This document shows, piece by piece, positions 11,614-16,548 of a stretch of 64,000 nt of DNA; within the stretch, counting starts at the first letter, position 1, and each line of letters begins with the position of its first letter. Made by a program: the position numbers and the translations under genes. Where the stretch lies: contig JAYVGQ010000100.1 in NCBI GenBank assembly GCA_043771985.1, positions 19,700 to 83,699 of the forward strand, written 5' to 3'. The notes below the pieces were generated by a model. The model saw nothing but the letters and a program-made list of their open reading frames with translations, was not told where the DNA came from and searched no databases. The stretch comes from Sphingomonadales bacterium. Lineage in GTDB: Bacteria > Pseudomonadota > Alphaproteobacteria > Sphingomonadales > Sphingomonadaceae.

Positions 11614-12750
11614 ATGGCAATATCAGACATCAATGCCGCCTTCGATAGCGGCAACATCATCGTCCACTCCATCACCGGCGCAGCGGCAACACTTTCGATT
11701 CGTAAAGACCGCGAATCGGAATTTGCGCAATGGTTCCATTTCCGCGTTGCGGCGGAACCGGGCGTGGAGATTACCCTCAAACTCACCGGCATGGAAAGCA
11801 GCGCCTATCCCGGCGGCTGGCCCGATTACCGGGCTTGTGTGTCCGAGGACCGCGATTATTGGGACCGCGCTGATACGGAATATGACAAAGGCGCAGACGG
11901 CGGCACGCTGACCATCCGCTACACCTCAGTCAGCGGCTTGGCATGGTTCGCGTATTTCGCACCGTATAGCATGGAGCGGCACCATGATCTGATCTCTGAC
12001 ACAGCGGGCCTAGAAGGCGTCGAATACCGCTGCCTTGGCCATAGCCTTGAAGGGCAGCCGATTGATTGCCTGGAAATGGGCAGCGGCGATACGCAGGTCT
12101 GGCTCTATGCGCGGCAGCATCCCGGCGAAAGCATGGCGGAGCATTGGGCCGAGGGTGCGCTCGATATGCTGACCGACCCTGCCGACCCGCATGCGCACAA
12201 ATTACTGGAAAAATGCCGCATCCATATTGTGCCAAACTGCAACCCCGATGGCAGCTGGCGCGGGCATCTGCGCACCAATTACGCTGGCGTAAACCTGAAC
12301 CGCGAATGGGCCGAGCCAAGCGCCGAACGCAGCCCCGAAGTATTGTGCATCCGCAACGCGATGGATACCACCGGCGTGCATTGGGCGATGGACGTCCACG
12401 GCGACGAAGCCATTCCCGCAGCCTTCATGGCAGGCTTTAACGGCATCCCGTCTTGGACCGACGATCAAGGCGAACGCTACCAGACTTTCATCGACCGGCT
12501 GGCGGCACGCACCCCCGATTTCCAGACCAAGCTGGGCTATCCGGTGTCGGGCAAAGGCAAAGCGAACCTGACGATGTCCACCAACCAATTGGCGGAACGG
12601 TTTGGGCCGTCGCACGGCTGTGTTTCCATGACGCTGGAAATGCCTTTTAAGGACACCATCGACAACAACGACCCTGACCAAGGTTGGTCGCCCGAACGGT
12701 GCAAGCTGTTGGCTCGGGAGTGTTTGGCAACTTTGTCGGAGTTGGTTTGA
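11614..12750 (+). CDS. M14 family zinc carboxypeptidase (cytosolic carboxypeptidase-like)
   Basis: RQHPGE, PNCNPDG, NLNREW, DVHGDE, TLEMPF motifs. Confidence 0.9.
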
Positions 12751-12944
12751 TGCTCTTTAGGGCAAATCGAATACAAAGTTTTAACAACAGCGAAATGATT
12801 GGTTGATTGTTAATTATCAAATCGGCAATTTCTTGGATGCAGGGCATGATCATCGTGTCGTTCCTCTATAGATTGTAGAGGGATTTACTTACGTCTTACA
12901 CAGAGTTCCGACGGCAATTATATACTTGAGTGAGCAGAATTACT

Positions 12945-13157
12945 ATGTCACAAGATTCGAGACAGGCCGGTGCTAGAATTAGAATTACTCCGCAGATGTT
13001 AGCGGCGGGAGAGGATTACGCTTTTGAACAGCTTCAAGAAGTTCCTCTTTCAGAATTTTCCGTTCGTCAGATAGTATCCGGAATCCTGCGCGCTGCGCTA
13101 ACTGCCGAAACCGGTCTCGATGACCGGGGTCATTTTGCTCGACAAAATCATCTCTAA
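12945..13157 (+). CDS. Small IS passenger protein (ITPxMLxAG motif)
   Basis: 70-aa ORF starting just inside the left IR, RIRITPQMLAAGED; overlaps the 3' end of the opposite-strand cargo gene. Confidence 0.5.
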   Translation: MSQDSRQAGARIRITPQMLAAGEDYAFEQLQEVPLSEFSVRQIVSGILRAALTAETGLDDRGHFARQNHL

Positions 13158-13641
13158 GGTCCGCTAGATCAATAACTAGAATCGTGGTGTCTTGGATTAG
13201 GTGAGTAAGATAGGCTTGAAAATCTTGTCCTGCTAATTTGCTCGGTTTTGAAGGGTTAATCGCTACAATTCTTGGCGGGACAGCGGCCTCAAAAATCTCA
13301 AATATTGTGTGAACGGTTGCATTGCGTTTGCCTGATAGCGCGTTGGTTCTGGCGTTTAGCTGGCCAATGCGCTTTAGCACTCGCCGCCGAGCATGATGCT
13401 CCGGATTCCTAGCTCGCAGTTCTTTGGGGTCGAATTGTAGAGTTATAGGGGCAATTGTAGTTATCAGTTGGCGTTGCATCGATCCTGTTTGAAACATGTT
13501 ATAAATCGCGTCAATTACGGCACGATCAGCCCCCGGTATCAGTCCGGTGCATATCAAATACCAAAGCTCCTCAACTTGGTTCCAAAGCGACGAAGTTTCA
13601 CCTACAAGGGCGTGTATTTCTTTTAATTCGGAGACAATCAT
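12985..13641 (-). CDS. IS passenger protein, putative HEPN-like RNase
   Basis: 218 aa, predicted helical; N-terminal LVGETSSLWNQVEE (E24) and R106-N-A-T-V-H111 (Rx4H) motif. Confidence 0.55.
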   Translation of the reverse strand: MIVSELKEIHALVGETSSLWNQVEELWYLICTGLIPGADRAVIDAIYNMFQTGSMQRQLITTIAPITLQFDPKELRARNPEHHARRRVLKRIGQLNARTNALSGKRNATVHTIFEIFEAAVPPRIVAINPSKPSKLAGQDFQAYLTHLIQDTTILVIDLADLRDDFVEQNDPGHRDRFRQLAQRAGFRILSDERKILKEELLEAVQKRNPLPPLTSAE

Positions 13642-13786
13642 GACGGCTCAATCAAACGGAGATGGCACCTATTCCGAAGCGGAAGCAGAGGCCCGTCGAG
13701 AGGCGGCATTAAAGCAAATGTTTGCCACCCCTCACAAGCCGCACAAGGCTAGCAAAAAGGATGACAAAGAGTCTCGCGGAAAATAG
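13640..13786 (+). CDS. Small IS passenger protein (LKxMFxTPHKPH motif)
   Basis: 48 aa MTAQSNGDGTYSEAEAEARREAALKQMFATPHKPHK...; SD GGAG at 13630-13633. Confidence 0.6.
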   Translation: MTAQSNGDGTYSEAEAEARREAALKQMFATPHKPHKASKKDDKESRGK

Positions 13787-13848
13787 CGGGGGTAACTACG
13801 TGTGAGCATGGGCTTAGAATTGCGCCATGCCTATATCTATCCCTTGCC

Positions 13849-14076
13849 TTATGGATTTTGCCTCTGAATCAGATTTGATGCAGTCAAAAGTTCAGCTGCG
13901 GTCTTTTCGTCGCCATGCTCGTAAAGCAGCGCAAGCTCCTTTAATATCTCCGCATATTCAGCCGAATTTTCCGACGTCAAAAGACCGTCCTTCCACATTC
14001 GCAGAGTTAATCCGGCTGTCAATTTTGTAAGCAGGCCAATAATTTTTGCAAGTCCGACTAGTCTTTCATCAACCAT
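13849..14076 (-). CDS. Small IS passenger protein, hypothetical
   Basis: 75-aa helical ORF downstream of and co-oriented with the transposase; purine-rich SD-like leader. Confidence 0.55.
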   Translation of the reverse strand: MVDERLVGLAKIIGLLTKLTAGLTLRMWKDGLLTSENSAEYAEILKELALLYEHGDEKTAAELLTASNLIQRQNP

Positions 14077-14123
14077 AATATCGCTTTCTCTTTTCGCCTA
14101 TCTCTAAAGGTATCACAGCCGTC

Positions 14124-15032
14124 TTAGGCGGCGATTTTGTCAGTCCGCCGATATGTGAGGCGCTTGCCTTCCATGCCCTTCACGATGACCGCAGCGCGCT
14201 CGCTGTCAGTTAATTCGCGGGTGTTGTAACGAAGGTCGAATTCTTTGCAGTAGCGGCAAAGGTGCGCTTCGCTCATATGGTGATAGGTGCCGATGACGCC
14301 GCGCTTGAATATCGAAAAGAAGTTTTCTGCGGTGTTAGAGTGCTTGTAACCGCCAAGGCCGGTGAACTGCTTTGCGCTGTGATTGACCGAATAGTGAGCG
14401 CCAAATTCACGACCGACGCCTTTATAGATGGGGCTTTCATCGGTCATAAGATGGGCGCTGCGATCTACATTGGTAACAAGCAATGCGCGGACGTTCTTTG
14501 CATTGACGTTGGCAACGTGAAAGCTGCGAACATGGCCTTCACGCTCGACAAGGGCAACAACGGCCTTCTTGGGAGCGGGACGGCTATGAGCACGATTACG
14601 GGCCTTGCCTCCTACATAGGTTTCGTCGGCTTCAACTACGCCGCTGCCACCACCTAGAGGGCCGGTGTCGGTAGCACCGTCCATTGCTTCGCGGATGCGG
14701 TGGCAAAGGAACCATGCTGTTTTGTAAGTGACGCCGATCATACGGGCCATTTGGCTTGCGCTCATGCCCTTCTTTGAAGCGGCCATGATGTGCGTTGCCA
14801 GCAACCACTTGTGCAAAGGAATGTGGCTGCGCTCCATGACGCTACCAGTGCGCACGGTGAACTTGTCGCGGCAATCGTTGCAAAGGAACATGCCAGCCTG
14901 TGTCTTGCCTTCCATACGGCGGACGCGGGTTGAACCACAGTGAGGGCAGAACACTCCATCAGGCCAGCGCGATGCTTCCAAATGGGCGGTTGCTTTGGCT
15001 TCGTCGTGAAAAATAGGGGCTGCAATGTTCAT
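14124..15032 (-). CDS. IS1595 family DDE transposase
   Basis: Zn ribbon CPHC...CNDC, HTH, catalytic motifs EADETY, MTDE, NTAENFFS, YHHMS...LCRYCKEFDLRYN; frame uninterrupted. Confidence 0.95.
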   Translation of the reverse strand: MNIAAPIFHDEAKATAHLEASRWPDGVFCPHCGSTRVRRMEGKTQAGMFLCNDCRDKFTVRTGSVMERSHIPLHKWLLATHIMAASKKGMSASQMARMIGVTYKTAWFLCHRIREAMDGATDTGPLGGGSGVVEADETYVGGKARNRAHSRPAPKKAVVALVEREGHVRSFHVANVNAKNVRALLVTNVDRSAHLMTDESPIYKGVGREFGAHYSVNHSAKQFTGLGGYKHSNTAENFFSIFKRGVIGTYHHMSEAHLCRYCKEFDLRYNTRELTDSERAAVIVKGMEGKRLTYRRTDKIAA

Positions 15033-15150
15033 GGCTTTGTTCCTTGTGAAGCCTGAATAGCAAAGTCAGTCTGCTAAGTAAAGTATATAATTGCCGTTCC
15101 GACAGGCTTTTGCCCTCAACCGGACGCAACCTATATAAGGTCTTAGAAAA

Positions 15151-15732
15151 ATGGACACGCGACCATCGATAGGCGAAGCGCTTTCGCGAGCTAGGCGCGT
15201 CTTGGACGAAGCGCGTGCTATGCAATATACTACCCCTGACTCTGATGGTCCTTTCGACGGCGAAGATTTGGACGATCCTAAGCTAATGTCACAGCTTATG
15301 GCGGTGGCACGACATCGAATTCTTTGTCTTCCTGATGTTACAGAGGCCCTTCAAGCGGTTCATGCATTACTAATTCGCACTTGGGTGAAAGGAAATGAAC
15401 GCACGAACAGATGTCGGGCGAAATCGTCATCATTGAATCTTTACCGTGTCGCGAACACCGCAGGGAACGATATAAAAATCCTAGCGGAGAGTGCTGATTG
15501 TGCGCGATTTTTTGCTTATGATTCAGGTCATGTTAGAGAAGAAAAAAATGCCTCCGTTTTCCTTTATGATGAACAGCAATTAGCGGAACTCAAGATTTCA
15601 GGTTCTGCGACTGGAAGAGCAATCCGTGAAGGAGTTCCGGGAGTCCTCAAGTCAGTGGGGTCTGGAATTGTAATTGAACAGGCTGGAAAAGTATATGTTC
15701 CGTTGACAGTTATCGACCCCGCAAAAAACTGA
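15151..15732 (+). CDS. Hypothetical protein (AT-rich islet)
   Basis: 193-aa ORF with no recognisable motif; visibly more AT-rich than the flanking core genes. Confidence 0.65.
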   Translation: MDTRPSIGEALSRARRVLDEARAMQYTTPDSDGPFDGEDLDDPKLMSQLMAVARHRILCLPDVTEALQAVHALLIRTWVKGNERTNRCRAKSSSLNLYRVANTAGNDIKILAESADCARFFAYDSGHVREEKNASVFLYDEQQLAELKISGSATGRAIREGVPGVLKSVGSGIVIEQAGKVYVPLTVIDPAKN

Positions 15733-15736
15733 CGTT

Positions 15737-15770
15737 CCGGTGATGGATTTCTGTTTTCGGGGAAATAGTG
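15737..15770. repeat. Degenerate right arm of a REP-like element
   Basis: CCGGTGATGGATT is identical to 38279-38291 inside the ImuB REP and is followed by a decayed TGGATT...TTCGGGGAAAT arm. Confidence 0.45.
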
Positions 15771-15875
15771 GAGAAGTTACGGAGCATTCTAGTGAATACA
15801 GCCCGAAGCGAATAGTCGAGGAATTTTAGCAGCTCGCCCTTGACAATGCGTCCAAATCTGGCGACCTCCTTTGCC

Positions 15876-16061
15876 ATGAAAATTGCAACCTTCACAGAAA
15901 TCTCCAAAGATTTTCACGCTGCAATGGACCGTGTAATTGACGATCATACGGCCATCGCGATTACGCGAAAGGGCGGCAAACCTGTCGTACTGCTCAGTCT
16001 TGAGGATTGGAATTTTTTCCAGTCGAAGATCGGTGGCGAATTAACTATCATCTCCGATTAA
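15876..16061 (+). CDS. Phd/YefM-family antitoxin, short, with no adjacent toxin
   Basis: FTEISKDFHAAMDRVIDDHTAIAITRKGGKPVVLLSLEDWN matches the YefM N-terminal DNA-binding domain; only 61 aa; TTGACA at 15840-15845. Confidence 0.75.
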   Translation: MKIATFTEISKDFHAAMDRVIDDHTAIAITRKGGKPVVLLSLEDWNFFQSKIGGELTIISD

Positions 16062-16068
16062 CCCGCCC

Positions 16069-16548
16069 ATGCACATCACCCCCGACGACCTAACCGGCCC
16101 AGAAATCCGCGCCCTCCTTGAAACCCATTTTGCCGGAATGTTGGCGAGTTCGCATGTGGGGTCTTGTCACTTTCTGGACTTTGAGGGGTTGAAGGGACCG
16201 GGGGTTTCGTTTTGGTCGGTGTGGACTGATGCTGGTGCGGACGCAGCGTTGATGGGGTGCGGGGCGGTGAAGGAACTTGATCCCAGTCACGGCCCAAAAC
16301 ACGGTGAGATCAAATCGATGCGGACGCATGCCGATCATTTGCGCAAAGGCGCGGCGGCGGCGATGTTGGAGCATATTATCGCGACTGCGCGGGAGCGCGG
16401 CTTACGGCGGTTGAGTTTGGAGACAGGATCGACACCAGACTTTGACGCGGCGCATGGGTTGTATCGGCGTTACGGCTTTGAATACTGCCCGCCCTTTGGC
16501 GATTATGTCGACGACCCGTTTAGCCGGTATATGACTTTGGTGCTTTGA
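16069..16548 (+). CDS. GNAT N-acetyltransferase (YsnE-like)
   Basis: GCGAVKEL, HGEIKSMRT, HLRKGAA, LSLETGS, LYRRYGF. Confidence 0.88.
   Translation: MHITPDDLTGPEIRALLETHFAGMLASSHVGSCHFLDFEGLKGPGVSFWSVWTDAGADAALMGCGAVKELDPSHGPKHGEIKSMRTHADHLRKGAAAAMLEHIIATARERGLRRLSLETGSTPDFDAAHGLYRRYGFEYCPPFGDYVDDPFSRYMTLVL

Follow-up and report, generated by a model that had tools for sequence, protein, structure and literature searches.

Insertion sequences (IS) are usually regarded as pure transposase carriers, and genes for defense or addiction are known on prophages, integrative and conjugative elements, integrons and Tn3/Tn7-type transposons. Transporter IS (tIS), which are IS with passenger genes, are reportedly confined to the IS1595 and IS66 families (bioRxiv 10.1101/2021.05.26.445724; PMC11891212). 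Here we analyze ORF218, an open reading frame (ORF) for a 218-amino acid (aa) protein that is carried by an IS1595-family element in a 64,000-nucleotide (nt) stretch of DNA, hereafter the window, from a Sphingomonadales bacterium (assembly GCA_043771985.1, contig JAYVGQ010000100.1, positions 19,700 to 83,699). A sequence-only reading of this DNA had proposed that ORF218 is a stand-alone HEPN RNase mobilized inside a very small IS. We find that the element belongs to a clade of tIS with a replaceable terminal gene. We put a probability of roughly 0.55 on the overall reading, in which ORF218 is a slot-borne tIS passenger that would act as a HEPN-type RNase and a latent single-gene effector.

HEPN domains have a four-helix up-down core, with helices 2 and 3 separated by a variable insert, and a conserved Rx4-6H motif in which a polar residue (N, D or H) comes right after the Arg; this motif closes helix 3 or opens the loop to helix 4 (PMC3710099). 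An acidic residue in helix 2, within an Ex3[KR] motif, is found in many but not all HEPN families (PMC3710099).

A transporter IS with a replaceable terminal slot

ORF218 lies in an inserted unit delimited by inverted repeats (IRs) and a target-site duplication and equipped with a transposase gene, bearing out the earlier proposal that the gene is carried in a 2.2-kb IS. The features, in window coordinates, are:

12913 to 15095: IS1595-family element of 2,183 bp, the inserted unit enclosing ORF218
12905 to 12912, unstranded: left copy of the target-site duplication, GTTCCGAC, with an identical copy at 15096 to 15103
12913 to 12947, minus strand: right inverted repeat (IRR), tip GGCAATTATATACTT, the same tip as at both ends of 65 sister elements
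12985 to 13641, minus strand: ORF218, the terminal slot gene, encoding a 218-aa helical protein of an RNxxxH (HEPN-like) family
13309 to 13326, minus strand: encodes R106-N-A-T-V-H111, the family's invariant motif, which sits at the C-terminal end of helix 3
13640 to 13786, plus strand: sORF, a small ORF and conserved gene for a 48-aa micro-protein with core TYSEAETEARREAALKRMLATPHKPHK, divergent from ORF218
13849 to 14076, minus strand: ORF75, in segment V1 between the transposase gene and sORF, of uncertain gene status and with no homologue found
14124 to 15032, minus strand: IS1595-family DDE transposase, 302 aa, with an N-terminal zinc ribbon, from Pfam and NCBIfam matches
15061 to 15095, minus strand: left inverted repeat (IRL), upstream of the transposase gene
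15096 to 15103, unstranded: right copy of the target-site duplication, GTTCCGAC, 8 bp and perfect

The IR arms measure 35 bp each (repeat match of 37 nt, 84% complementary), and the 15-nt tip occurs only twice in the window, at the two element ends. The transposase matches DDE_Tnp_IS1595 (PF12762, 1.6e-32), its zinc ribbon (PF12760, 5.3e-12) and the NCBIfam model transpos_IS1595 (NF033547, 8e-55), and G+C content is 43-50% within the element versus 55-61% in the flanks. By every defining feature tested, the element is a tIS of the IS1595 family, and because the target duplication encloses the whole unit, ORF218 moved together with it. Searched for Rfam families, promoters and terminators, the element showed no signal above background, and a plasmid collection contained distant transposase matches only. 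None of the RNA runs was usable; there was a single metatranscriptome, holding 5% of the sampled words.

Read depth in the source sediment metagenomes is the same over ORF218 as over the flanks and is greater over the transposase gene, indicating that the ORF218-bearing version is single-copy among related elements. Low-depth contigs from these metagenomes join position 12975 to 13667, so that ORF218 and the start of the micro-protein gene are missing, and others join 13755 to 14123, with the ORF75 segment missing. Near-identical variants without one or the other variable segment thus coexist in the same samples.

ORF218 itself is a real coding gene under purifying selection, with a ratio of nonsynonymous to synonymous substitution rates (dN/dS) of 0.11-0.19 against three homologues of 61-83% identity. 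The source annotation calls a 190-aa product (P0001) that starts at the TTG of codon 29, which removes a conserved N-terminal helix with G14, W20 and E24; the ATG at 13641 is the better start, since residues 1-28 are kept in all close homologues. The ORF list and AlphaFold2 (AF2) models agree with the sequence-only reading on a mostly helical 218-aa protein at 12985-13641, and E24, R78-NPEH-H83 and R106-NATV-H111 all stand where that reading had placed them. We rejected as spurious a plus-strand ORF at 12930-13157, which overlaps ORF218 on the opposite strand, since purifying selection acts in the ORF218 frame.

Using the transposase alone as query and one genome per species, we examined 80 sister loci (at least 421 loci were transposase-positive). 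Their transposases are 66-92% identical to that of the ORF218 element, and almost all come from Sphingomonadales; Methylocystis and Enterovirga contribute a few. Both repeat tips were found in 65 of the 80, delimiting elements of 1.8-3.7 kb, 59 of which have perfect 8-bp duplications around the whole unit. A slot gene is present in all 65 complete elements; there is no bare IS among them. The layout is constant: IRL, transposase gene, an optional segment (V1), a small ORF that runs the other way, and a terminal ORF (V2) of 166-285 aa that abuts IRR. In nearly all elements this terminal ORF keeps its place and points the same way as the transposase gene. The clade is therefore large and mainly found in Sphingomonadales, with a backbone of IRL, transposase, micro-protein gene and IRR, and with replaceable V1 and V2.

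Comparison with the closest element (locus L016, transposase 92% identical) illustrates this replacement. DNA homology is limited to three blocks, namely IRL with the transposase gene (88%), the sORF core (84%) and the last ~100 bp including IRR (79%). ORF75 and ORF218 fall in the two segments that are not homologous, making ORF218 a cassette-like occupant of a conserved slot.

What fills the slot varies widely. A hidden Markov model (HMM) of the ORF218 family matches 38 of 62 scored terminal ORFs at E<0.01. Among 40 IS-borne slot proteins that we aligned, identity to ORF218 is 9-23%; apart from the start Met, only R106 and H111 are invariant, G14 is nearly so, and the consensus around the motif is RNxxxHG. 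A second slot class comprises 13 terminal ORFs of 243-284 aa with the motifs GDxxHNLRSALDH and NxDKH (loci L024, L032, L035, L040, L050, L062, L066-L068, L073, L076, L080 and L085). It corresponds to no Pfam or PADLOC family, and kinship with ORF218 was ruled out (hhalign probability 0.6%). Singletons occur in the slot as well. In three metagenome-assembled genomes there are two elements each, whose slot genes differ (L026/L055, L025/L056 and L065/L072), so one genome can hold a small slot-gene repertoire. Passengers seen in V1 elsewhere include a GIY-YIG nuclease-domain protein and a DUF1828 protein (loci L026:5047-5523, L023:5480-6256).

With a slot gene in all 65 complete sister elements and a distant relative of ORF218 in 38 of 62, the slot occupant appears to be a mobile effector module that recurs, and not a passenger by chance. 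The description of ORF218 as stand-alone IS cargo was thus right about its carriage but understated the arrangement, since the gene fills a clade-wide conserved slot head-to-head with a micro-protein gene.

The RNxxxH family and its likeness to HEPN proteins

Direct scans of ORF218 against Pfam, NCBIfam, PADLOC and PHROGs gave no match, even at E up to 1 for PADLOC-DB v2, and a scan of a collection of genome contigs found no relative. Close relatives amount to only 12 protein clusters among 5.8 billion. A profile search of 1.84 billion representatives yielded 156 matches at E<1e-3, of which 106 homologues (alignment A2) provide the conservation counts given here.

The sequence-only reading had cautioned that Rx4H alone is a weak motif, and rightly so: 80% of shuffled versions of ORF218 contain Rx4-6H, and 2% contain RN...H. 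Because a single Rx4-6H is not above chance in this Arg- and His-rich protein, the motif signal rests on conservation. R106 is present in 106/106 homologues, N107 in 104/106 and H111 in 105/105, the opposite of the loss of R106 and H111 that the same reading had named as evidence against its proposal. Also well conserved are R57 (103/106), Q56 (92/106) and G14 (103/104); position 24 is Glu in 65/105 (62%) and Q, H or D elsewhere, and position 44 (Asp in ORF218) is acidic in 70/106. The second Rx4H that had been pointed out, R78-NPEH-H83, is present as sequence but of no relevance: it sits in a non-conserved insert missing from about 96 of the 106 homologues, which rules it out as a second active site. 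We infer that ORF218 is a member of an unnamed and very divergent family of helical proteins of 170-230 aa with an invariant R-N-x3-H that ends the third long helix.

AF2 models are mostly helical, both for ORF218 (predicted local distance difference test score, pLDDT, 85; predicted template modeling score, pTM, 0.83) and for a 192-aa homologue, P0012 (pLDDT 95.5, pTM 0.88). In ORF218, helices span residues 2-34 and 40-67, followed by the insert, a helix at 80-115 that holds the motif (106-111), a loop and a helix at 141-170; in P0012, a helix at 73-96 with R92..H97 is followed by a hairpin and a helix at 127-156. In both models helix 1 is long and helix 2 kinked; a variable insert leads to helix 3, which ends in RNxxxH, and a loop or beta-hairpin, helix 4 and a two-helix C-terminal extension follow. 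The family thus has the HEPN form of the motif and the HEPN four-helix topology, the latter as judged from AF2 secondary structure only.

Weak profile matches point in the same direction, all of those to Pfam lying below gathering thresholds. The only Pfam families matched by more than two of the 106 homologues are HEPN_Cthe2314 (9) and HEPN_RiboL-PSP (3). The 40 IS-borne relatives gave matches to DUF4145, MtlR, HEPN_Cthe2314, RiboL-PSP, Abi_2 and Swt1, all of them HEPN families (PMC3710099), and HMM consensus sequences matched HEPN_Cthe2314 (3 of 7 queries), RiboL-PSP, AbiU2 and HepT-like. In PADLOC, 63 slot proteins produced weak matches only (E of at least 0.0048), and 7 of the 11 families concerned are the HEPN-bearing Csx1, Csm6, CARF_HEPN and RTasHEPN. 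A PDB sequence search placed Csm6' on top, with RNxxxH aligned on RNxxxH, at a non-significant score. Best E-values were 0.0011 for DUF4145, 0.0048 for Csx1, 0.008 for HEPN_Cthe2314, 0.03 for RiboL-PSP, 0.039 for AbiU2, 0.083 for HepT-like and 0.39 for Csm6'.

Several observations weigh against reading ORF218 as a HEPN RNase effector. No match to HEPN was significant in Pfam, NCBIfam, PADLOC or PDB sequences (the last searched with profiles A1, A2 and A5), and the weak matches may stem from the short motif itself. Foldseek, a check that the sequence-only reading had proposed, returned only generic helical bundles when both models were compared with PDB and the first with BFVD (all E>0.02); the best match in the viral BFVD was an unnamed 159-aa protein (E=0.023). 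The helix-2 acidic residue and its Ex3[KR] context, an optional feature, are absent, with an invariant Q56-R57 in their place. E24, which had been taken for the N-terminal HEPN Glu, is ruled out as the canonical acidic residue, lying in helix 1 rather than helix 2 and being only partly conserved. Unrelated proteins also fill the slot, so slot function need not be RNase-specific. RNase activity, toxicity, a trigger and a phage phenotype are predicted properties of ORF218.

A different view sees the protein as a non-catalytic helical protein, for instance a regulator that binds RNA or protein, with the motif serving for binding as proposed for inactive HEPN proteins such as MtlR, or as a four-helix bundle unrelated to HEPN. 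The lack of a significant match in sequence or fold, the generic four-helix bundles among the top structural neighbors and the missing helix-2 acidic residue would all fit. However, strict invariance of R, N and H amid 9-25% identity is typical of catalytic residues, and HEPN proteins thought to be inactive have mostly lost the motif (PMC3710099). We therefore regard a non-catalytic or non-HEPN protein as unlikely, although it is the strongest of the competing explanations. The HEPN assignment drew support from the form of the motif, its position in helix 3 and weak matches that are mostly to HEPN families, but not from any significant profile or fold match; we consider membership in the superfamily fairly probable.

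Homologues of ORF218 beyond the sampled elements occur in various settings:

L014, 61% identity to ORF218: the same IR tip follows
L004, 66% identity to ORF218: degenerate IR, with a DNA-repair gene upstream
L011, 83% identity to ORF218: follows tatC; decaying sORF, no IR; probably what is left of an IS
P0012 (L006-L009), more distant: alone between hflX and mazG
P0010 (L010), more distant: near merR-mazG-hflX-hfq
P0008, more distant: located in a toxin-antitoxin (TA) island, right after an HTH_3 gene

An hfq-hflX/mazG neighborhood with a single ORF218 homologue and no IS ends thus recurs, at the P0012 and P0010 loci.

In the window, the IS lies in a low-GC stretch (~12750-16000) that also contains a 193-aa ORF of unknown function at 15151-15732. 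Just to the right of the IS, a gene for a Phd/YefM-type antitoxin (15840-16061, plus strand) is immediately followed by one for a GNAT acetyltransferase (16069-16548, plus strand), probably a TA pair in which a GNAT toxin is combined with an antitoxin of an unusual type.

The micro-protein gene and the proposed role

ORF218 and sORF are arranged head-to-head, their start codons overlapping in the palindrome CATG, and this arrangement is conserved across the clade. In about 47 elements sORF is open and 44-57 aa long, with codon-position entropies of 0.86/0.74/1.39 (positions 1/2/3) and a median dN/dS of 0.35; its product consists of the core TYSEAETEARREAALKRMLATPHKPHK followed by a basic tail. 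Public data hold at least 2,317 clusters of such proteins, all unnamed and without a Pfam family. For ORF75, neither a homologue among the fetched loci nor a family match was found.

The most likely role of ORF218, as predicted from sequence, is that of a trigger-dependent RNase effector of the abortive-infection or addiction type. Inserted as one unit with the tIS of which it is the terminal passenger, the gene would most likely encode a HEPN-type, metal-independent endoribonuclease, probably a homodimer in which two RNxxxH motifs form the active site. The protein would probably remain latent until a trigger, perhaps phage infection, stress or loss of a regulator, and would then cleave cellular or invader RNA. 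Such latency is weakly suggested by the stand-alone copies, some of them amid housekeeping genes, which are tolerated, and by most loci lacking a co-varying partner gene. As a single-gene abortive-infection or addiction effector, ORF218 would pay for retention of the element.

Could ORF218 instead be the toxin of an IS-borne TA pair, with sORF (as a protein or through antisense overlap of the 5' end) or ORF75 as the antitoxin, and with post-segregational killing stabilizing the element or its replicon? Tn3-family transposons do carry TA modules, one HEPN-MNT module among them (PMC7157771); the head-to-head layout with overlapping start codons is kept across the clade, and the gene of the homologue P0008, part of a TA island, comes right after an HTH_3 gene. 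However, sORF shows 55-85% conservation, whereas slot proteins share 9-23% identity or no relationship at all, which argues against co-evolution. ORF75 has no homologue beside any ORF218 relative, and several homologues stand alone, with no small neighbor. Neither MNT/NTase nor any other recognizable antitoxin domain was found among the window neighbors or the called genes of the homologue loci. A TA pair is thus improbable. Since the micro-protein does not vary together with the slot protein, it is probably no classical protein antitoxin. Regulation of the backbone or slot promoter may be its function; alternatively, and speculatively, the sORF transcript could act by overlapping the 5' end of the slot mRNA.

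Least probable, in our view, is that ORF218 and sORF are transposition accessory factors, which process or destabilize transposase mRNA or couple transposition to cell state, and are not conflict effectors: a slot gene in every one of the 65 complete sister elements and a strongly conserved sORF convergent with the transposase gene would suit such a role, but at least two mutually unrelated slot classes plus singletons are hard to fit to a specific mechanism, and at chromosomal sites that lack a transposase, purifying selection still maintains homologues of ORF218.

A whole clade of 2-kb IS is never bare in our sample, yet exchanges at one set position an RNase-like gene that diverges fast. 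If this is confirmed, the idea of cargo hotspots in mobile elements would extend to the smallest autonomous elements and would help to explain IS persistence. The clade offers two uncharacterized candidate effector families, RNxxxH and GDxxHNLRSALDH/NxDKH, together with a very abundant conserved micro-protein. A bolder and rather doubtful extension would see in the clade an autonomous platform of ~2 kb, with a fixed backbone and exchangeable conflict effectors (mostly HEPN-like RNases, with at least one unrelated family), in which the micro-protein or antisense 5' overlap would serve as a generic slot regulator; these would then be the smallest self-mobile vehicles for defense or addiction known. 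Were it correct, the slots would form a natural library of candidate effectors, with functions inferred throughout.

Comparison with known systems

Like described IS1595-family tIS, the ORF218 element combines a single DDE_Tnp_IS1595 transposase bearing a zinc ribbon with short IRs, an 8-bp target duplication and internal passenger genes. It differs in its passengers: those described include transcription regulators, for example, whereas here a micro-protein gene accompanies a replaceable slot filled mostly by RNxxxH proteins. We found no description of this clade-wide backbone-plus-slot layout in the searchable literature, which did not cover Siguier et al. 2009.

Among stand-alone HEPN proteins (Cthe_2314, AbiU2, RiboL-PSP, AbiD/AbiF and integron-cassette HEPN; PMC3710099), the likeness extends to a size of ~200 aa, a helical core, an R-[N/D/H]-x3-H that ends helix 3, an insert of variable kind separating helices 2 and 3, and presence on mobile elements. 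The ORF218 family departs from them in the invariant Q-R that replaces the helix-2 acidic residue, in its C-terminal two-helix extension and in the absence of a significant match. It is probably a new family of the HEPN superfamily, although membership fails the available significance tests.

The HEPN domains of Csx1 and Csm6, from type III CRISPR-Cas systems, provide the top weak matches of the ORF218 family in PADLOC and PDB sequences, with E-values of only 0.005-0.4. The P0012 model has a beta-hairpin straight after RNxxxH, as does the Csx1 family (PMC3710099). Unlike these proteins, ORF218 has no CARF sensor domain and no CRISPR context.

The adjacent MNT antitoxin gene that, in an operon, marks a HEPN-MNT type II TA module is missing next to ORF218; judged by its sequence and neighborhood, ORF218 is neither a HEPN-MNT module nor a known PADLOC system. 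Conceptually closest are the TA modules that Tn3-family transposons carry, among them HEPN-MNT in TnSod9 (PMC7157771). Those are two-gene type II operons with a recognizable antitoxin on replicative transposons of 5 kb and more, whereas the ORF218 element has no cognate antitoxin evident and carries a single effector gene within ~2 kb. Common to both is a putative RNase effector at a fixed and unusual position, apparently acquired or exchanged repeatedly.
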